Positions 3,749 through 26,892 of a DNA stretch of 52,277 nucleotides are shown in pieces. This stretch comes from an uncultured Methanosarcinales archaeon. GTDB taxonomy: Archaea; Nanobdellota; Nanobdellia; Woesearchaeales; CAYVYK01. Each line of letters starts with the position of its first letter. Positions within the stretch are counted from its first letter, which is position 1. The notes below the pieces were generated by a model. The model made no database searches, was not told the origin of the DNA, and saw nothing but the letters and a program-made list of their open reading frames with translations. The stretch covers positions 62,001-114,277 of the forward strand of contig CAYVYK010000005.1 in assembly GCA_964455675.1 (NCBI GenBank), written 5' to 3'. Position numbers and translations under genes: made by a program.

Positions 3749-3848
3749 NNNNNNNNNNNNNNNNNNNNNNNNNNNNNNNNNNNNNNNNNNNNNNNNNNNN
3801 NNNNNNNNNNNNNNNNNNNNNNNNNNNNNNNNNNNNNNNNNNNNNNNN
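3749..3848. other. Assembly gap (100 N)
   Basis: Run of N. Confidence 1.
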
Positions 3849-4564: not shown

Positions 4565-4610
4565 CAATGCAGATACTGCACGCGTTTGTGCGTGATGTGC
4601 GATTCCCACC

Positions 4611-4652
4611 CCTCTGCTGGCAGGTGACATTCCTGCCAGTGGAGGTTTCTTT
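4611..4652 (+). terminator. Hairpin terminator after copy 2, homologous to the one at 4069
   Basis: CCTCTGCTGGCAGG...CCTGCCAGTGGAGG then TTTCTTT. Confidence 0.65.
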
Positions 4653-4904
4653 CCTTTAGCCCTGTTGGTGTCTGTGTGATCATCCCCTAGCCACATCATT
4701 TTGAAAGCAACCTGATCCGAGTTCGAGCGAGGATTGAGAGGTAAGGTTGGGGAATTCTCGGGCAGTGTACATAGTCGGTGTAGGGTATGTTGTTGTGTGC
4801 GGGTTATGCCGCAGAAAGGAGATTACGAGAAGGCAGTTGTAATACCCGAGAAGTATCAACGTTGGTAGACTAGTACAATAGCCTCACTAACAAGGAGTGT
4901 TCGC

Positions 4905-5447: not shown

Positions 5448-6800
5448 ATGAAACCGTTGATAACAATTGTGTGTCTGATGGCGTTCGTCGGATCTGCCCT
5501 CGCCGACGGGCGGCCCGCTCCATACCTCTTTTCGGACAACTACACCGGTCCCGAAATCGCCGCCTTGGAGGCTCAGGCGATTTTGCTCGAGGAGCAAATC
5601 GATGCTCTGACCACGCAGATTGAGCAGTTGAAGCAGCAAGGGAAGGACGCGTCGGGTGAAGAGGAGCTCCTCGCAGCGCGTGAGAAGGAGCTGATCGACC
5701 TCACGAGGCTTCCCGAGGATATCCGGGAGCTCAACGCGTCCATGATCGAGTTCTGTCAGTCTGAGCTCGAGCGTTTGGTTCCTGATCGTTTCGGCGAGAA
5801 AGCCATAACCTTGGAAAATGCGAAAATCCTTGGTGACCTGCTCTTTACAGATTGGGGCCAGGAAAAGGTCAATTACCGTTGGCAGAGTGGTATCCTCTCC
5901 GGAATGGTTCAAGCATCCCAGCACCCCCGCATCTCGCCGGAAGTGTGTAAAGTCCTCCGGGACATCTCCATGGAGTACTATCAGGGTGTGCGGGCCCACT
6001 ATCCGGATGAGAACATGGTCTCGCCCATGTGGATGTCTGAGATGTCGGAGGCGCTCCTTCGCCTCTCGGAACCTGACGACATCGACGCGCGAGCTGCGGC
6101 AACTAAGCTCTGCCAAGACACGGTCAACTGGGCTGACGCTCTCGAGCGGCCAACCGAGGCGTCCAAGTACCGGGCGACCTTGAAAAATCTCGTCGATGCG
6201 TCCGATGAGATTCAGCTCGTTGGTCCCGATCTTGCCGCCGGGTATGCCAAGCAGCAAGTCGAGATCGTCCTTTCGTCCGGGAAGACCGCGAAGATGTCTC
6301 TTGAGGAAGCTCGGCGGCGCATCGAGTTCCTCCTGCGCAGATTCAACTGGGACATCGACAAGGTGAGAGAGATCACAGATCTCGGCCTTGCGAATTATGG
6401 CGTCGAAGTTTACAACGTCAAAATGCGCAAGGTCCTCTTCGAAGCCTACGCCCGCATCCTCGTGCAGTCTCCTGACACGTACGGTAAAGCGGAGAACGCC
6501 GCCAAGATCATTTCCCACATTGACGCGTCACTACTCACGCTCGCAGAGAAAAACCAAGTTCCTGACGACGCGTGGAGCAAGTGGGCGGTCGCTTCGAGCC
6601 AGCTTGGCGCTCGTGCCTCTGACAAAATGAAGAAGTTCGTCCTGGAAAATACGCAGGTCAAGAAGCGCTCTAGTCTCAAGATCGCCTGCGATCGTGTCTC
6701 CTCTTACTGGGCAAAAAGCCGAGGCACGAAGAATGGCCCGCAGGCAAGCAGCGTGGCCAAAACCGTACCTTCCTCACAGCCCGCTCCGAAGGGACCGTGA
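5448..6800 (+). CDS. Secreted, mostly alpha-helical hypothetical protein with an N-terminal coiled coil
   Basis: AAGGAG at 5431 then ATG; signal peptide MKPLITIVCLMAFVGSALA; long ORF. Confidence 0.8.
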   Translation: MKPLITIVCLMAFVGSALADGRPAPYLFSDNYTGPEIAALEAQAILLEEQIDALTTQIEQLKQQGKDASGEEELLAAREKELIDLTRLPEDIRELNASMIEFCQSELERLVPDRFGEKAITLENAKILGDLLFTDWGQEKVNYRWQSGILSGMVQASQHPRISPEVCKVLRDISMEYYQGVRAHYPDENMVSPMWMSEMSEALLRLSEPDDIDARAAATKLCQDTVNWADALERPTEASKYRATLKNLVDASDEIQLVGPDLAAGYAKQQVEIVLSSGKTAKMSLEEARRRIEFLLRRFNWDIDKVREITDLGLANYGVEVYNVKMRKVLFEAYARILVQSPDTYGKAENAAKIISHIDASLLTLAEKNQVPDDAWSKWAVASSQLGARASDKMKKFVLENTQVKKRSSLKIACDRVSSYWAKSRGTKNGPQASSVAKTVPSSQPAPKGP

Positions 6801-6841
6801 GGATAGGATGAGTCTATGTCGAGCGAGGGAATGAGAGCAAC

Positions 6842-7935: not shown

Positions 7936-8035
7936 NNNNNNNNNNNNNNNNNNNNNNNNNNNNNNNNNNNNNNNNNNNNNNNNNNNNNNNNNNNNNNNNN
8001 NNNNNNNNNNNNNNNNNNNNNNNNNNNNNNNNNNN
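7936..8035. other. Assembly gap (100 N) covering the pncB start
   Basis: Run of N. Confidence 1.
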
Positions 8036-10235: not shown

Positions 10236-10762
10236 TGCCAAGAGCGATAGTCCGTCCTCTTGATCTTGGGGATCTCGACCACATGATGGAGTGGGTGAAT
10301 GATCGAGAAGTCATTGGCAATTTTGCGAATTTTGCGACTCCTACGTCACGATCCCAGGAGCAGAAGTATCTCGAAAATCTTCTGAAAAGCGAGACGGACA
10401 AAGCTTTTACGATTGAGACCGAACAGGGTGACTATCTTGGGACCGTTGGCATTTATCAAATCCATTGGCCGGCGCGTTCGGGCAGGCTTGGCATCATTAT
10501 TGGCAAACCAGCTTTGCGAGGCAAGGGGTACGGCCAGAGTGCAATCAAGGATGTCCTACGATTGGCATTTGAACAGTATAACCTACATAAGGTTTGGCTC
10601 GTTGTCTTCGAGGAGAACGCGCGCAGTCGCCACGTGTACACCAAATGTGGATTTCGTGAAGAGGGAATCTTGCGGGATGAGTACTTCCATCAGGGAAAGT
10701 ACCACAATATGGTGCGGATGTCCATTCTTGATCGTGAATATTTTGCAGAGGTGAAGATATGA
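10232..10762 (+). CDS. GNAT (RimJ/RimL-type) N-acetyltransferase
   Basis: RGKGYG, LHKVWL.V...N, Y.KCGF.EEG.LR. Confidence 0.9.
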   Translation: MMPRAIVRPLDLGDLDHMMEWVNDREVIGNFANFATPTSRSQEQKYLENLLKSETDKAFTIETEQGDYLGTVGIYQIHWPARSGRLGIIIGKPALRGKGYGQSAIKDVLRLAFEQYNLHKVWLVVFEENARSRHVYTKCGFREEGILRDEYFHQGKYHNMVRMSILDREYFAEVKI

Positions 10763-12762
10763 AAGTCGCACTCGCTCAGATGGAGGTAGTGCCCGGACGA
10801 CCGAGGAAAAACTTGGAGACCATGCTTCGCATGATCGAGCAGGCGAAGCGCGAACATGTGGACCTCATCGCGTTTCCTGAGATGGCTCTCGCAGGGTACC
10901 TTGTGGGTGACGCGTGGTTGAATGATGCGTTCTGCCGCAACCTCATGCGCTGCAATGACGAGATTCTCAAAGCAAGTCATGGCATCGCGGTTGCATACGG
11001 GAATGTTTTTGTCGACGATGGCCAGGGAAAACGAGTCTTTGGTGATGAAAAAACTCCCCATCCGAATAAGGATGGACGGTCCCGCAAGTATAACGCGGTG
11101 TACGTGATGCAGGATGGCAAGATGGTTGCGCGGAGCAGAGAGACATTAATCCTGCCTCCAGGAGTAGAGCCAAAGACGTTGCTACCAAATTACAGATTCT
11201 TCGACGATGAGAGATACTTCTTTTCAACTGAGGATGTAGCGAAAGATTTTGATGTACCTCTTGAGGATCTGTTGCAGCCGTACATGATACGCGTTGGTGA
11301 TCATCATGTTCCCGTGGGGTTTAGCGTCTGTGAGGATCTATGGTGTGCTGACTACCGGAAGTCGGGTAAATCCCTTAATCCAACGAAGATTGTTATTGAT
11401 AATGGCGCGAAGCTCATGGTGAATATCTCGGCGTCTCCTTGGACGTATGGGAAAAATGCGGCGCGCGATCGCAGAATCTTATACATCAAGAGTGATTGTA
11501 AGGGAAAGTTTGTGCCATTCTTGTATGTCAACAAGGTCGGAGTTCAAAATAACGGTAAAAACCTCATTACCTTCGACGGTGGTTCAACAGTCTACAATAC
11601 GGACGGCAGACCCATCATGTTGAGTAGCGAGCCCTTCAAAGAGGAGCTTTTGATGGTTGACCACGGCTCACTTGAGGGGTTGCCTCTAGTTCGGACGGAA
11701 AAGTCCATGATCGCCCAGAAGTATGATGCGATAGTCCGTGGCATCCAGGGAGTGAAGGACACGATGGGAAGAGTTACCGATCCGTGCTATGTCATCGGCC
11801 TCAGCGGCGGTGTTGATAGCGCAGTTGTTGCCGCGTTGCTCGTGCAGGCTGTTGGCAGGAACAAAGTTCTTGGAATCAACATGCCAACGAAATACAATAG
11901 CGAACAGACAAAATCTGCTGCAGCACGTGTTGCAAAGAGGCTGGGAATTGCGTACGAAGTCATCCCTATCGAGGAGATCGTAAGCATAAATGAATCACTC
12001 CTCAATGCGTGTGATGCGGATGGATCAGGGAAGAAATTGAGCTCGCTGAACGAGGAGAACGTGCAGGCCAAGATTCGGGGAACATCAGTTCTGTCGAATA
12101 TCGCCGCAAAGTATGGTGCGCTATTCACAAATAATGGCAACAAGCTTGAGACCGCTCTTGGGTACACAACACTATACGGGGATGTAGGTGGCGCGGTTGC
12201 GCCGATTGCAGACCTCACAAAGGTTGAGGTTTTTGAGCTCGCGCGTTACCTGAACGAGGAAGTGTTCGGGTATGAAGTGATCCCAAGTGATCTCCTTCCT
12301 GACCACCTCTTCCGTTTCCGGGATGATCAGATCCAGCCTTCCGCAGAACTGAGAGATGCGCAAGTCGACCCGATGAAGTTTGGTTATCATGATGCGCTGC
12401 TCGTCGCAATGACTGATTACAAGAAGAAGAGTCCCGAGGATGTCCTTAAGTGGTACCTTGATGGCACGATGGAGGAAAATCTTTCCATTGGCACCGATCT
12501 TATGGAGCGCTGGGGCCTTGTGGATCCAAAGACGTTCGTCGAAGATCTTGAGTGGTTCGTGCGCAGTGTTCAGAACAGCGTGTTCAAGCGCGTCCAATCC
12601 CCTCCCATCATTATCACGAGCAAGTCCTCGTTCGGATATGATATCAGAGAGAGCCTGGTTCCGTGGGAACCTACATTGGAGTTTGATGAGCTTAAAGCTT
12701 GCGTGCTTGCGCACGGCGCGTATGTTCCTCGTGAATATGTCAAAACCGAGGTGCGCGCATGA
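10759..12762 (+). CDS. nadE: Glutamine-dependent NAD+ synthetase
   Basis: Nitrilase domain (FPE, KTLLPNY, VCEDLW) plus GLSGGVDS, NVQAKIRG, GYTTLYGD and PSAEL. Confidence 0.96.
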   Translation: MKVALAQMEVVPGRPRKNLETMLRMIEQAKREHVDLIAFPEMALAGYLVGDAWLNDAFCRNLMRCNDEILKASHGIAVAYGNVFVDDGQGKRVFGDEKTPHPNKDGRSRKYNAVYVMQDGKMVARSRETLILPPGVEPKTLLPNYRFFDDERYFFSTEDVAKDFDVPLEDLLQPYMIRVGDHHVPVGFSVCEDLWCADYRKSGKSLNPTKIVIDNGAKLMVNISASPWTYGKNAARDRRILYIKSDCKGKFVPFLYVNKVGVQNNGKNLITFDGGSTVYNTDGRPIMLSSEPFKEELLMVDHGSLEGLPLVRTEKSMIAQKYDAIVRGIQGVKDTMGRVTDPCYVIGLSGGVDSAVVAALLVQAVGRNKVLGINMPTKYNSEQTKSAAARVAKRLGIAYEVIPIEEIVSINESLLNACDADGSGKKLSSLNEENVQAKIRGTSVLSNIAAKYGALFTNNGNKLETALGYTTLYGDVGGAVAPIADLTKVEVFELARYLNEEVFGYEVIPSDLLPDHLFRFRDDQIQPSAELRDAQVDPMKFGYHDALLVAMTDYKKKSPEDVLKWYLDGTMEENLSIGTDLMERWGLVDPKTFVEDLEWFVRSVQNSVFKRVQSPPIIITSKSSFGYDIRESLVPWEPTLEFDELKACVLAHGAYVPREYVKTEVRA

Positions 12763-21911: not shown

Positions 21912-23129
21912 CTAGCGAAGGCCCAAGAAAAACAGCATGACGGGAACGAGAATGCACGCCATGGTGTTTGATCGCTTTACTCCGACGAGAGGAGCGAGGA
22001 GTCCGACAGCTGTTGATGTGATGAGTACAAGGAGTCCAGGCAGTCCACAGAGGAGTATTGCGAGTACTGTCACAAATGACATGATCGCAATGCACACGCG
22101 CTGATAGTTGATCTTGCTCATGATGTTTGCAAATACCCTGGCAAGCGATAGCGTGATGAACGCAGCTATTCCTCCCGTTATGGCGCAGACGGCGAGCAGT
22201 GTCCACAGATCGTGCAGGCTGATGTGCGCGGTGAGTTCTTGCAGTGCGACGATCGCCCCGTTGCGCGGTTTGTCAAGCGCATAGAATGCGCCTAGTCCGA
22301 AGACAAAATTTGATGTGCTGATACCGCCAGTAAGTATGAGAAATCCGTACTCACCGAGTCCTCCAATAAGATACAGGCAGACTGTTGCGGCTGTTGAGCT
22401 GCCGACTCCGGGGAGCATGCCGACGAGCGAGCCGCTGAATACCGAGCCCGCTATCGCTTTGATCTGCGCGATCGGCGAAATCTTGAGTGATGCGGATGTT
22501 TCTTGTGGTGGGATCTTCATTTCTTCGTCGAGAGCCGTGATAAGTGTTGATATTCCAAACAGTCCTGAGAGGAGCGGAAAGAGCGGCTGTTCGAGCCGTT
22601 CAAAATCAAGCACAATGTACCCAAGCACTCCGGACAGAAGGATGACGAATAATCCCCACACTTTTTTCCCCCATCCTCGTTCCGTGAGGACCATGAAAGA
22701 GAGAACCCAAAGGAGGATGATTCCCATGAGCGGGGAGATGCTGTCATACACTCGTTCGAGGAACGGAATGACCGCCGGGATAATCGCAATCGTCAGGATG
22801 AGCGCGCAAAGACTGCCAAGGACAGTCAGGTAGACTGCTTCGTATCCTTTTCCTTTGAGGAGGAGCTTATGGCCTGGCAGTACGTTCAGTACGGTTGCCT
22901 CATTGGGGGCTCCAAGGAAGATGCTTGGCACAGCATCGACAAATGAGTGCGTGACCCCCATCGAGATGATGAACGCTCCAAGCTCAAGAGGTTGCGTGTA
23001 TTTCAGGAGAATTCCCGACATGCTGACGAGCAGCACGCTCACGAGATTGATATGCACGCCGGGAGTGAGGCCTGTGATAATTCCGCAGAGGATTCCAAGG
23101 ATGGTGGCAAGGAGGAGTGCGATGAACAC
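21912..23129 (-). CDS. Tripartite tricarboxylate transporter TctA family (archaeal DUF112 type)
   Basis: GLTPGVHIN, PSIFLGAP, VLPGH..L..G.G, GVKRS; start set at GTG 23129. Confidence 0.88.
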   Translation of the reverse strand: MFIALLLATILGILCGIITGLTPGVHINLVSVLLVSMSGILLKYTQPLELGAFIISMGVTHSFVDAVPSIFLGAPNEATVLNVLPGHKLLLKGKGYEAVYLTVLGSLCALILTIAIIPAVIPFLERVYDSISPLMGIILLWVLSFMVLTERGWGKKVWGLFVILLSGVLGYIVLDFERLEQPLFPLLSGLFGISTLITALDEEMKIPPQETSASLKISPIAQIKAIAGSVFSGSLVGMLPGVGSSTAATVCLYLIGGLGEYGFLILTGGISTSNFVFGLGAFYALDKPRNGAIVALQELTAHISLHDLWTLLAVCAITGGIAAFITLSLARVFANIMSKINYQRVCIAIMSFVTVLAILLCGLPGLLVLITSTAVGLLAPLVGVKRSNTMACILVPVMLFFLGLR

Positions 23130-23225
23130 GCGTACATGTCGCCAGGTATCCTTCTTATTCCTTTGACCATTTTGTCCGCAAATATTTCGCAATGCTTCAC
23201 TAATATTTACTATATAGTAAACAAT

Positions 23226-23265
23226 AAAGAAAAAAAGGAAGGCGATCCTTGCGGGATGGCCTTCC
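23226..23265 (-). terminator. Intrinsic terminator closing the stem-loop array transcript
   Basis: Minus strand GGAAGGCCATCCC-GCAA-GGATCGCCTTCC followed by TTTTTTTCTTT. Confidence 0.85.
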
Positions 23266-23270
23266 AGAGA

Positions 23271-23961
23271 GTGGCGGACATATGACTCAGAGGGTGAATC
23301 CTCGCGATTGTCCGCCACGTTGGTGTCAAATGCCCCGCACATTGTCGATATTGCGGATTTCGGGGTATACGGGGCAGCGTTGTGTATTATGCGGCACGCA
23401 CCTCCAGTTTTGAGAGGAGAACTACGATTACGCACCGCGAGTATGTCAGAGTGGCGGACACGCGACGGGTTAAGGTAACTTCGGCTTATGGCCGCCACGT
23501 TGGTGTCTGTTGCCCCACACACCTCTCATATTTAGATGCTGTATGTAGTGGGGCAACGTTGTGCGGCGCGTATGTTGACGGTTTAATCCATCCGAGCTTT
23601 GGCGCGCCGCGTGTATGTCGGAGTGGCGGGCACCTGGGGTACAGTGTGTCATAGTAATCTATGTCCGCCACGTTAATGTCTGCTGCCCCACATCACCGGC
23701 GTTGTGTTTACGAATTCGACAGTGGGGCAGCGTTGTGCGGCGCGCAGTAACTCAGAAGACTGTACCGCTTGTTTTGCGCGCCGCGTGTATGTCTTGTGGC
23801 GGTTAGTCCCGGTATTCTGTAAACGTAATGAAAAAACCGCCACGTTGGTGTCTGTTGCCCCACACGGCCTCGTCAACCAGAGTAACACATTTGTGGGGCA
23901 GATGGTATGTTGTGCGGCGCGCAACTCCACTTAATCTGTTAGGACACCAATTGCGCGCCGC
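23271..23961 (-). repeat. Stem-loop guide-like array, downstream of the Tas-like gene (12 hairpins, A-B-C x4)
   Basis: Stems GTGGCGGA/TCCGCCAC, TGCCCCAC/GTGGGGCA and GCGGCGCG/CGCGCCGC close 27-29-nt unique loops; A stems at 23271, 23451, 23623, 23796. Confidence 0.92.
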
Positions 23962-24026
23962 GTGCGTGACTGGAGAATTCCAGGATGATTCCGGAGCGGT
24001 CGCGCAGTGCACGCCGCTCGTTGAGA

Positions 24027-25757
24027 TTACACGGTCACGAGCTGCTGCTCGTCGATGCGCTTCCACTCTTTGAACAACCACGTGGCGAATTCGCCGAGCA
24101 TGTACCAGATCGCTTGCCTGCGGATGTGGCCGTCGGTGTACATCTCATGGTGGCCCTTGTCTGCGCAGTCAAACTTCTTCTTGTACAAGCGATACGGCGC
24201 GGGGAGAAATGGCGGAGTCTCGTTGGGGAACGGATGCCGGTAGCGTATACCGCGATCATAGTCAATCACGTCATCCCGCATTGCGTCGCGCCATCCATTC
24301 TTCGCGCCGGGACTGCTGATCCTCTCGATGAACCGGTGCTCCCAGTCATGCGGTGCGCGCCATTGCTTCATGCTGTCCGGGAGCTTCCAGTGCTCATCAG
24401 CCTTCGTCGCAGAGCGCCAACCACGCTCTCTGGTTGAGTCCATAATCTCGAGCATGACGACGTTGCCGTCGTTCCAGCCGAACACGCGGTCGAGCCGTTC
24501 GAGGCGATACCCACGCGGTTGTGTGGGATCGTCATGCCGGCGCCATCCGCCGCGGAGCCAATGTCCATTATGTGCACTATCGTCGGGGATTTGCAGAATC
24601 TCAGCGCATTCCCTGCAAAGAATGTCCGGGCGCTGCGTTCTGAGCTCTGCGATCAGCTCGCGTAGTCGATCGCCCCACTGAGTTCCGGGTCGCTTGCTCG
24701 CTTGCATCGCGAGCTGGTAGAGGCTCTGGCGTGCGTCGCCGCTCCAGTTCGCGATCTTTCCAACCTGTCGGTGGGGGAAGCTTCCGTCAGCACGCGGGCG
24801 AACGCCACAGTAGGATGCGAACGCTGCCGCGTTCGGGAATCGCTTGATGTTCTGAACTGCCGCGATGAGGCCGCCTGCGATGCGGGGTCCAACGCCTGTG
24901 ATGCTCGAGAGCACTGCTGTATAGATCGCGGTTCCCTCGACGGCTTCCGCAAGCGCCTTGTAGCATTCGTCCTCGTCCGCCTGCAGGAGCGCGAGCCGCT
25001 CGTTATTGGCGACAGCCGCCTCGCATGCATCGAGGATGCTGCCCTCCGGGTAGTATCCCTCCTCGTTCATGAAGATGCGCCCGTTGAAGCGCTGCCGCAG
25101 CCGTTGTTGGCATGCGATACGGGACTTCATGGCGTCCATACGATCCTGGAAACGTGCACTCACGAGGATCAGGCTCCGCTCCACAGGATCTACCCGGTAA
25201 AAGATCTCGCGCTTCTCCTTGACGAGTGTTGCGAGCAGTTCATGATCGTCGTTCTTGTCGCGCGTGCCACGCTCTTCCTTGAGCCTTGCTGGCGGAATGC
25301 GGAAGATCTCAAATCCCTTCTGTTCGCCACATCGCGAGATGGCGAACGCGAGTGCATCGCCGCTGCCGCCGAGCACCATGCCGACGATATCATCCTTCTC
25401 GAGTCCTTCGAACCTGATCGGCACATGCGTGGCTATCTCGAAGTCGTGCTTGAATCCGAGTAGGATCTTGCGTGCGCGTTCGATCGGGCGCACGAACTTC
25501 TGAGGGTGTTGCGGCACTTCCTCCGCGCTGATGCCCTTCCACCGTACCTGGTAATCGCGAAAGTTCGCAAGTTCATCCTCTTCCGTGATCTCGCGATACT
25601 TCACGGGATGGATGCCGCGCACGAAATCGAGTTCTGCCTGCTCGTCCGGAAGGTCGAGGGTTTTTGTCTTCTCACCCTGGATGATGGTGACTTGCGTCGG
25701 CCGCGGCTTGCCTTCCGCTGTCATCTTCACCCTGTGCCTGATCCCGATGTGTCTCAC
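24027..25757 (-). CDS. IS110/TIGR-Tas-like Nop-domain protein with degenerate RuvC-like N-terminus and large insertion
   Basis: ITGVGPRIAGGLIAAVQNIKRFPNAAAFASYCG (IS110/Nop-like), DGSFP.R..G...NW, C-terminal GHIRRQA.WYM..F..WLFKEW; AGGAGG RBS. Confidence 0.85.
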   Translation of the reverse strand: MRHIGIRHRVKMTAEGKPRPTQVTIIQGEKTKTLDLPDEQAELDFVRGIHPVKYREITEEDELANFRDYQVRWKGISAEEVPQHPQKFVRPIERARKILLGFKHDFEIATHVPIRFEGLEKDDIVGMVLGGSGDALAFAISRCGEQKGFEIFRIPPARLKEERGTRDKNDDHELLATLVKEKREIFYRVDPVERSLILVSARFQDRMDAMKSRIACQQRLRQRFNGRIFMNEEGYYPEGSILDACEAAVANNERLALLQADEDECYKALAEAVEGTAIYTAVLSSITGVGPRIAGGLIAAVQNIKRFPNAAAFASYCGVRPRADGSFPHRQVGKIANWSGDARQSLYQLAMQASKRPGTQWGDRLRELIAELRTQRPDILCRECAEILQIPDDSAHNGHWLRGGWRRHDDPTQPRGYRLERLDRVFGWNDGNVVMLEIMDSTRERGWRSATKADEHWKLPDSMKQWRAPHDWEHRFIERISSPGAKNGWRDAMRDDVIDYDRGIRYRHPFPNETPPFLPAPYRLYKKKFDCADKGHHEMYTDGHIRRQAIWYMLGEFATWLFKEWKRIDEQQLVTV

Positions 25758-25819
25758 GTCTGTTCCTCCTTTTCATGAACCGTGTTGTATTGGGAAGCCG
25801 TCAGGCTTGAGTGTCATGT

Positions 25820-26467
25820 GCTGCCGTGCAACTCCCAAGGTTTAGATTACTTGAGCATCAGCACGGCAGCGTGTGACGGACAGACATGGCTCTGCTTGGA
25901 CGAGTCCTCTTGTCCGCCACGTTGGTGTCAAGCGCGCCCTGCAGTTGGATTCTTTGGTAAAACAGCCCTTCGAGCAGGACGCGTGGAATCTTGTGCGGCG
26001 CGCACTCACACTATTCTCTCAAGGACCTCATTGCGCGCCGCGTGTATGTCGTGTGGCGGACACGAGCGCAATTTATTTTGAGTCGCCTCGTAGTCCGCCA
26101 CGTTGGTGTCAAGCGCTGCTCCGCACCCTCACCATTGGGGTGTATCCACTTCACAGCGGAGCAGCGTGGGGTGTAAAGTGCGGCGCGGAGATCCTCGCAG
26201 GGAAAATGGGCTCCATTATGCGCCGCGTATGTGTCGTGTGGCGGACAATGCCAACTTATGAATGACTGGGACCCTTGTCCGCCACGTTAGTGTCAAGCGC
26301 TGCCCCACATTTCCTGGCGTGGAGTAAGACCATTCCCATTGTGGGGCAGCGTGTGTGTTGTGCGGCGCACAACCACCCATGTTGGTGAAAACTCCCTTGA
26401 GTGCGCCGCGTATATGTTGTGTGCGGACAGTCCCGGTACAGCGATGAACGTAATGATAGTCCGCCAT
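25820..26467 (-). repeat. Stem-loop guide-like array, upstream of the Tas-like gene (11 hairpins)
   Basis: Same three stem classes and linkers; A stems at 25873, 26053, 26238, 26421; loops 27-30 nt. Confidence 0.92.
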
Positions 26468-26892
26468 GTTCGTGTTAACGCATCGAGGGCAAGTCTTATT
26501 CGGGGGTGACTATTCTGACTTTGGAATGTACTCCGCAGGCTAGAGAAATCTGTTTCTTCCACCGACGAAAACGCGAGTTTTCTCGCATTTCCGCTCTTCT
26601 CCATTGTGTTTTCGAGACTGCCGATCCTGTTCATTCAGAGTATTGCTGCATGTGTGCTCGCAATAGCGAGGATGATTGATCGGTCGTGGTGTTGCGCGTT
26701 CTAGCGTTAGGTTTGTTAGGGTAAAATGAGTATCACGAATCGGTAGTGAATATTTAAAGGTTGTTGCGTTTTTTCAAGTCATGAAACGGATTCAATCCGT
26801 CGCCGTAACCCTTCAATAATTTACCACTACTAGATGATGAAAAAGCAAAGGTTTAAAAATCTGGACTACCTTCTCCGTTGCGGTGATACGTA

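Follow-up and report, generated by a model that had tools for sequence, protein, structure and literature searches.

Here, we describe a locus in a 52,277-nucleotide (nt) stretch of contig CAYVYK010000005.1 (assembly GCA_964455675.1, positions 62,001 to 114,277 of the forward strand; hereafter, the window), in which hairpin arrays lie to either side of a single gene, tas, encoding the protein P0001. TIGR-Tas systems were first described in 2025 (PMC12045711), while stem-loop arrays and a clade of TasR proteins with a dead RuvC domain were reported in a 2026 preprint (10.64898/2026.09.09.750476). We regard it as highly probable that the locus is a stem-loop TIGR-Tas system, with one TasR gene and tigRNA hairpin arrays on both sides, and that two of its hairpins, 10A and 23A, carry the same guide pair. 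The coordinates of all features are collected in Table 1.

Results

The two arrays were defined by a hairpin scan, a register table and an alignment of all 23 units. The z scores of RNA folding, compared to shuffles, are −7.41 for the upstream array (array 2) and −7.39 for the downstream array (array 1). Three stem classes (A, B and C) alternate across the 23 hairpins with a period of ∼180 nt. In the alignment, 88.7% of the stem cells are paired, and compensatory double changes are present at 9 of 10 pairs. The covariation score was reached by none of 500 shuffles, and sliding the partner by 1 to 3 columns left only 24 to 54% of the cells paired. The stem classes are common to both arrays, and the spacers differ apart from those of the 10A/23A pair. 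Tandem Repeats Finder missed both arrays, and no Rfam family, CRISPR-DR included, was matched anywhere in the window.

Aligned on the tas (minus) strand, all units follow one loop plan. All 23 loops have U at positions +12 and −1; 22 of 23 have A or U at +1, and 22 of 23 have it at −12. The closing pair is C-G in 18 of the 23 units. The invariant U and the A/U positions divide the loop into two 12-nt modules, each consisting of 2 nt, 9 variable nt and a U, with a linker of 5 to 8 nt between them; the order on the tas strand is stem-C, 2 nt, 9 variable nt, U, linker, 2 nt, 9 variable nt, U and G-stem. Information content in the variable 9-mers is ≤0.55 bits per position. The linker is G-poor (10% G versus 24% in the background) and rich in A and C, and the spacers are G-rich (31 to 36%). 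The spacer G excess is weaker in the related loci described below (28% versus 24%). In the TasR structure paper, box C (C plus 2 nt), a 9-nt spacer and box D (UG) occur twice per guide (PMC12045711, section 8), and arrays of stem-loop units, each with two spacers around a variable linker, have been described in two sources (PMC12045711, sections 9 and 24; 10.64898/2026.09.09.750476, Results). Judged by sequence, the loop plan of the 23 hairpins is the published stem-loop tigRNA layout. A sequence-only reading of this DNA had proposed bipartite guides, i.e., two short guides per loop, and the invariant U at +12 and −1, read on the tas strand, bears this out; its loop size of ∼28 nt has to be corrected to 29 to 32 nt when loops are measured from the closing C-G pair.

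Two loops in different arrays share the same two blocks around a different middle, as had been noticed in the sequence-only reading. The pattern GTCCCGGTA-N{5,12}-AACGTAATGA has exactly two matches in the window, i.e., at 23806-23831 in hairpin 10A of array 1 and at 26430-26456 in hairpin 23A of array 2, and none of 100 dinucleotide-preserving shuffles of the window contained two matches. The middle is TTCTGTA (7 nt) in the former and CAGCGATG (8 nt) in the latter. Because the A preceding GTCCCGGTA is also common to both loops, both shared blocks are 10 nt long, and 20 of 20 block positions are identical. Of the 10 loop positions outside the blocks, by contrast, alignment with unrestricted gaps brings no more than 4 into agreement (Fisher p = 3.5e-4). 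Among the 23 loops, 10A and 23A are the only pair with exact sharing of 9-nt spacers, and other 7- to 8-mers are common to loops in roughly the number expected by chance, as calculated by our own arithmetic. The 9-nt block of the earlier reading is exactly spacer B and its 10-nt block is spacer A plus the U of box D', while the middles that it had described as unrelated linkers correspond to the linker together with the two bases of box C'.

On the minus strand, unit 23A has 2 nt before spacer A (UCAUUACGU), then U and a 6-nt linker, and another 2 nt before spacer B (UACCGGGAC), which is followed by U. In 10A, the shared spacer-A block comes after a run of six U/T, and positions +12 and +13 are both U; strictly by register, spacer A of 10A is at 23824-23832. 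The offset of this block could be due to slippage by one base in the T run. The scaffolds of the two units are dissimilar in linker, box C' bases and stem details. If the guides are read from box D', the sites specified by 10A and 23A are identical. Reading from box C, which the published cleavage rule suggests, gives two sites that differ by 1 bp in half-site spacing. The earlier proposal that both units recognize the same target is, thus, supported in part: spacer B is identical and in register, but the spacer-A block of 10A is displaced by 1 nt away from the stem. Altogether, we consider it likely that 10A and 23A address the same target.

Table 1. Features of the TIGR-Tas locus and of its surroundings (positions in the window)
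Feature	Position	Strand	Description
tas (P0001)	24027-25757	-	576 amino acids; GTG start; AGGAGG a few bases upstream
Array 2, upstream stem-loop TIGR array	25820-26468	-	11 hairpins (transcript order: 23A, 22C, 21B ... 13B); 63 nt between its end and the tas start
Array 1, downstream stem-loop TIGR array	23271-23961	-	12 hairpins (transcript order: 12C ... 1A); 66 nt between the tas stop and its start
Unit 23A	26419-26468	-	5'-most unit of the locus; perfect stem of 6 bp only
Unit 23A, loop	26429-26458	-	spacer A, 26448-26456; box D' U, 26447; linker plus box C', 26439-26446
Unit 23A, loop (continued)		-	spacer B, 26430-26438; box D U, 26429
Unit 10A	23796-23843	-	third unit of the downstream array; stem closed by U-A, not C-G
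Unit 10A, loop	23805-23834	-	spacer B, 23806-23814, identical to that of 23A and in register
Unit 10A, shared spacer-A block	23822-23831	-	distance from the stem 1 nt greater than in 23A
Stem class A			GTGGCGGAC / GTCCGCCAC
Stem class B			GCCCCAC / GTGGGGC; variants altered on both sides
Stem class C			GCGGCGCG / CGCGCCGC
Candidate promoter upstream of array 2	26749-26777	-	sigma-70-like match overlapping the A/T-rich TTTAAATA; low confidence, host probably archaeal
NAD synthase and TctA permease	10759-12762 and 21912-23150		neighboring genes of archaeal (DPANN) look

P0001 scores 107.6 bits with the NCBIfam model NF052498 (TIGR_Tas_endo; TIGR-Tas system RNA-guided endonuclease; cut-off 100). 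With the IS110 transposase model NF033542, it scores 65.9 bits, which is far under the cut-off of 140, and it also matches Pfam PF02371 (Transposase_20), the IS110-type C-terminal domain. Its best sequence match in the PDB is 9mty, a TasR-tigRNA-DNA complex (1.5e-9). Similarly, the predicted fold best matches TasR in 9mty (E 6e-10), followed by the IS621 and ISCro4 recombinases and then TasH. The fold model was based on 26 aligned sequences and has a mean predicted local distance difference test (pLDDT) score of 76.5, with low confidence for residues 389-535. The N-terminal IGIRHRVK motif is conserved in the 26 aligned relatives and has R7 at the position of the first RuvC catalytic aspartate; moreover, the strand formed by residues 124-129 contains no acidic residue. 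CsTasR, in which the first two catalytic positions are occupied by R8 and V126, is a non-cutting RNA-guided repressor (10.64898/2026.09.09.750476, Results), and P0001 resembles CsTasR R8/V126 by motif only. We suggest that the RuvC-like domain of P0001 is probably inactive. By its family, fold and motif matches, P0001 is a TasR of a clade otherwise found in Patescibacteria, with a predicted Nop/IS110-like RNA-binding domain and a predicted N-terminal RuvC-like domain. We found 47 relatives at E ≤ 1e-3, and those with names are from Patescibacteria; a tblastn search of a phage collection with P0001 gave no match. Residues 389-535 (window ∼24150-24590) form a Trp-/Arg-rich insertion of ∼150 residues before the last helix (pLDDT < 50). 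This insertion is missing from relatives of 395 to 460 amino acids, and there is a weak zinc-ribbon-like match at residues 378-395.

The same plan is present in related loci. One scan of genome contigs gave 55 loci, and 564 clustered units in 52 of these loci were kept. P0001 is 33 to 44% identical to the TasR proteins of the 55 loci, all of which are in Patescibacteria-like metagenome-assembled genomes. Hairpins with the C...U(+12)...U-G plan are found 766 times on the tas strand versus 254 times on the opposite strand. Several features of these units were not imposed by the scan: of the 564 units, 360 have GA following the closing C, 318 have GA in front of spacer B, 451 have G at +13 and 427 have C at −13, and an inner hairpin of 3 to 6 bp separates the two spacers. 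These features agree with the published boxes. The loops of the relatives are mostly 33 to 40 nt long. The arrays of relatives also have a fixed recurring order of stem classes, and the class A stem GTGGCGGAC is common to locus L001 and others.

Repeated guide pairs also occur in relatives. In the 52 related loci, eight within-locus pairs of units share both spacers, and the linker is the same or nearly the same in six of the eight. The window's pair is paralleled by two units in L039 (3788-3840 and 4165-4216), in which both spacers are identical and the inner hairpins differ. In L040, an identical unit is present in both arrays (4592-4657 and 6755-6820), and all neighboring units are different. 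Likewise, L009 has one guide pair twice (2836 and 3111) among neighboring units that all differ. L021 (6534-7921) and L040 (4300-6881), which are from two species, have in common an ordered series of approximately eight stem slots with a super-repeat of ∼725 nt. Their spacers have nothing in common except one pair that is identical at 16 of 18 positions and lies in different slots (L021 7518, L040 4862). According to our own estimate, which uses a uniform base composition, ∼0.003 such pairs would be expected by chance; however, we hold this cross-species pair loosely because its two stem classes are alike at all but 2 of 11 positions. In these two loci, scaffolds are conserved and guides turn over. 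A word search of the text of 10.64898/2026.09.09.750476 found no passage on repeated spacer pairs.

The window was searched for targets in several geometries. For rc(A)+B and B+rc(A) on both strands with gaps of −1 to +2, there were no sites with ≤2 mismatches. In these opposite-strand geometries, eight sites had 3 mismatches (mean of 30 shuffles, 5.7) and 60 had 4 mismatches (mean, 69). With all eight combinations of order and orientation and gaps of −1 to 12, three sites had 2 mismatches compared to 1 to 7 in 10 shuffles. Thus, the enrichment of paired target matches that would be expected from paired guides is not seen within the window, and this negative carries little weight because 52 kb is too short. 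Contiguous protospacers, the alternative to paired guides, are not present in the window either, the best matches having 10 to 12 mismatches of 29 to 32 positions. In the 52 related loci, targets within the own locus are in slight excess (five sites with 2 mismatches versus a mean of 1.5, and 40 with 3 mismatches versus a mean of 21) with no perfect match; this weak excess could be due to degenerate units that escaped masking or to spacers of low complexity. When the 10A/23A pair was compared to the 55 loci, one site with 2 mismatches was found in a large open reading frame (ORF) of L032 and was rejected, as ∼0.17 such sites are expected by chance (own estimate). Natural targets have mostly been undeterminable so far (10.64898/2026.09.09.750476, Discussion), and natural targets and spacer acquisition are open questions in both publications (PMC12045711; 10.64898/2026.09.09.750476).

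The genes around the locus are chromosomal and include genes for NAD synthase and nicotinate phosphoribosyltransferase, for regulators of the TrmB and Lrp types and for a branched-chain amino-acid ABC transporter, as well as part of the gene for FtsZ. Among the organism-named matches listed for NAD synthase, nearly all are from Woesearchaeota, Nanoarchaeota or Nanoarchaeia, with up to 67% identity; lower down the list, there is one match from Promethearchaeota and one from Bacteroidota. For the TctA permease, the start of which is ∼120 nt from the downstream array, all organism-named matches are from Woesearchaeota or Nanoarchaeota. Based on the sequence matches of these two genes, the host is probably a DPANN archaeon with a TasR of a clade otherwise seen in candidate phyla radiation (CPR) bacteria. 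The G+C content of tas is 0.59 compared to ∼0.50 in the surroundings. Together, the archaeal neighbors, the Patescibacteria-like relatives of TasR and the higher G+C content of tas suggest cross-domain transfer. The mechanically called ORF of the TctA permease (21912-23522, minus strand) runs ∼120 codons into the downstream array; because its Pfam match begins at residue 137, translation probably begins near 23150, which would leave the array non-coding. The window is a scaffold, as two runs of 100 N (3749-3848 and 7936-8035) show, and its gap-free part (8036-52277) contains the TIGR locus as well as both genes on which the host assignment is based. A tRNA scan of the window found none, and no adaptation genes, cas families or fibrillarin-like gene were found among the 50 window ORFs scanned. 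Promoter-like sites were not significantly enriched (4 versus 2.3 expected), and the promoter and terminator scans were at the level of shuffles.

Discussion

Our data establish the anatomy of the locus, the family of its protein, the covariation of the stems and the occurrence of the loop plan in relatives. We propose a model in which the arrays would be transcribed from the tas strand and processed into tigRNAs. Each hairpin consists of a stem of ∼9 bp ending in a C-G pair and a loop in which the remainder of box C (2 nt, mostly A/U) is followed by spacer A (9 nt), box D' (U) and a short, G-poor linker; the remainder of box C' (2 nt), spacer B (9 nt) and box D (U) then complete the loop. By analogy with the solved and tested relatives, a TasR dimer would bind one tigRNA, and each of the two spacers, A and B, would pair with a different strand of an 18-bp DNA site. 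As RuvC is apparently inactive, the complex would probably bind and repress its target rather than cut it. In this model, 10A and 23A present one spacer pair on otherwise dissimilar scaffolds, and the unrelated middle would be the part of the loop that is free of sequence demand. Most likely, the guides are kept constant by the target while the linker drifts.

Several observations weigh against this model. First, the strand test based on G-U wobbles is undecided in the window, with six on the minus strand versus four on the plus strand, and we infer the minus strand as the transcribed strand from the orientation of the motifs and from the relatives. Second, the inner C'-G pair and the inner hairpin of the relatives are missing from the window loops, G is at +13 in only 3 of the 23 loops, and position −13 is C in 10 loops and A in 9. 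Third, the spacer-A block is offset by 1 nt relative to the stem in 10A, and in a strict reading that is anchored at box C, 10A and 23A specify different 18-bp sites. Fourth, the closing pair of 10A is U-A and the stem of 23A has only 6 bp; 10A or 23A may, therefore, be impaired. Fifth, the inactivity of RuvC is inferred from the motif and from the description of CsTasR in the preprint. Finally, none of the geometries searched gave a target in the window.

The origin of the shared guide pair can be explained in other ways. Conceivably, an adaptation process that writes into existing scaffolds installed the same half-guide pair twice, independently, from one target, in place of a duplication on which selection then acted. 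We consider this unlikely. It would account for an identity that is limited to the two 10-nt blocks, with linker, box C' bases and stem details all differing, and it also fits with the window's two arrays having their stem classes in common and all other spacers different, and with the eight-slot stem series of L021 and L040, in which the 16/18 spacer pair is in different slots. However, there are no adaptation genes near the locus and none are known for TIGR (PMC12045711 and 10.64898/2026.09.09.750476, discussions). Moreover, six of the eight duplicated pairs in relatives have the same or a near-same linker, as plain segmental duplication gives, and the two stem classes involved in the L021/L040 pair are told apart by only 2 of 11 positions.

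Alternatively, the pair could result from plain duplication with no special selection, in which case the identity of the blocks would be left over, the target unimportant and one or both copies decaying. Unit duplicates are, indeed, common in relatives (8 pairs in 52 loci), and the U-A closing pair of 10A, its 1-nt shift beside the run of six T and the short stem of 23A at the array edge would be consistent with decay. Nevertheless, uniform decay cannot account for a single 30-nt loop in which 20 of 20 block positions are identical and no more than 4 of the other 10 match (p = 3.5e-4), and we regard this explanation as quite improbable. With uniform decay after duplication excluded by this comparison, selection on the guides with a free linker, which we prefer, or repeated installation remains.

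A different question is on which nucleic acid the guides act. In box C/D small RNAs (sRNAs), guides act on RNA, and the spacers of the window could similarly address RNA sites separately. The Nop-domain fold is common to P0001 and box C/D ribonucleoproteins (RNPs; 3pla and 3nmu are weak fold matches, E 0.5 to 0.7), and the CPR dead-RuvC clade has been discussed as a possible intermediate towards small nucleolar RNPs (PMC12045711, discussion). By contrast, two TasR proteins of the clade as well as TasA bind DNA and repress (10.64898/2026.09.09.750476, Results), and the window contains neither k-turn box C/D motifs nor an Rfam family, nor, among the 50 ORFs scanned, a fibrillarin-like gene. Accordingly, we see very little chance that the guides act on RNA.

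We give next to no credence to the loops being contiguous CRISPR-like spacers or the gene being an IS110 transposase with bridge RNAs: for all the interspaced repeats, the Pfam Transposase_20 match and the next-best folds IS621 and ISCro4, the invariant internal U splits each loop into two equal modules, the hairpin of the relatives sits between the halves, the three alternating half-palindromic repeat classes, each of which pairs with its neighbors, are unlike CRISPR repeats, there are no cas genes among the 50 ORFs scanned and no Rfam CRISPR-DR, P0001 reaches 65.9 bits where the IS110 model demands 140 and there are 23 guide hairpins rather than one two-loop bridge RNA. Split spacers, the lack of cas genes, the IS110 score under the cut-off and R in place of the first D already contradict either identity.

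A bolder proposal, which we put forward with considerable reservation, is that guide pairs are installed into, or kept on, conserved scaffolds independently of the scaffold, and that a CPR-type TasR resides in a DPANN chromosome. The same two half-guides recur in three settings, i.e., 10A/23A in the window, the L039 units and the L021/L040 slots, and in all three every neighboring spacer differs. If repeated target-templated acquisition were true, this would be the first sequence-level trace of TIGR array adaptation. A CPR-type TasR in a DPANN chromosome, if true, implies transfer between two groups of ultra-small episymbionts. CPR bacteria are the only known non-viral hosts of TIGR arrays according to 10.64898/2026.09.09.750476, and the Woesearchaeota/Nanoarchaeota-like neighbors of the locus contrast with this host range.

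The 10A/23A pair amounts to a natural experiment: both 9-nt guides are identical to the letter while the linker is unrelated, and the pair, thus, marks the guide boundaries without biochemistry. The pattern argues for selection on at least some TIGR guides for a specific target. It also illustrates that the split-guide logic of TIGR-Tas is recoverable from a bare reading of sequence.

Among known systems, the locus is closest to the CPR dead-TasR loci. CsTasR (547 amino acids; 10.64898/2026.09.09.750476; PMC12045711, sections 9-10) is similar to P0001 in size and has the same IGIRHRVK with R. In these loci as in the window, arrays lie on both sides of tas, and each hairpin has two 9-nt spacers between box C and box D (UG); the relatives of the clade also have a fixed order of stem classes, and the stem GTGGCGGAC of the window is common to L001. 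There are also differences. Window loops are 29 to 32 nt long compared to mostly 33 to 40 nt in relatives and lack the inner hairpin or conserved inner G-C pair between the spacers, and box C is C + A/U + N in the window compared to C-G-A in 360 of 564 units of relatives. Moreover, the neighbors of the locus look archaeal (DPANN), and P0001 has the low-confidence insertion of ∼150 amino acids at residues 389-535. With a loop of 30 nt that lacks an inner hairpin and with a relaxed box C, the window's hairpin represents a compact tigRNA of the clade; this loop form is within the range of stem-loop tigRNAs in the preprint and is unusual for the protein clade.

TaTasR (PDB 9MTY; PMC12045711) is the best PDB match by sequence and fold, and its guide has the same box C-spacer-box D module twice. 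However, its 36-nt tigRNAs are cut from alternating edge and loop repeats of 8 to 12 nt with no long stem and its RuvC is active, whereas the window has long stems, variable linkers and a RuvC that is probably dead. IS110/IS621 (PDB 8WT6) shares with P0001 a homologous Tnp/Nop-like RNA-binding domain and a RuvC-like fold, and its loops also have split guide segments. By contrast, the window gene is under the cut-off of the IS110 family, its first catalytic position is not acidic, and instead of one bridge RNA with a target loop and a donor loop there are many tandem units. Archaeal box C/D sRNAs with Nop5 similarly combine a pair of guides in one RNA, with a box D-type element after each guide, and use a Nop-domain protein dimer, but the window is without RUGAUGA/CUGA k-turn boxes and without an Rfam match, and the published relatives bind DNA (10.64898/2026.09.09.750476). 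Altogether, the principle of bipartite guides is already known, and the locus described here is a further, somewhat compact stem-loop TIGR-TasR.

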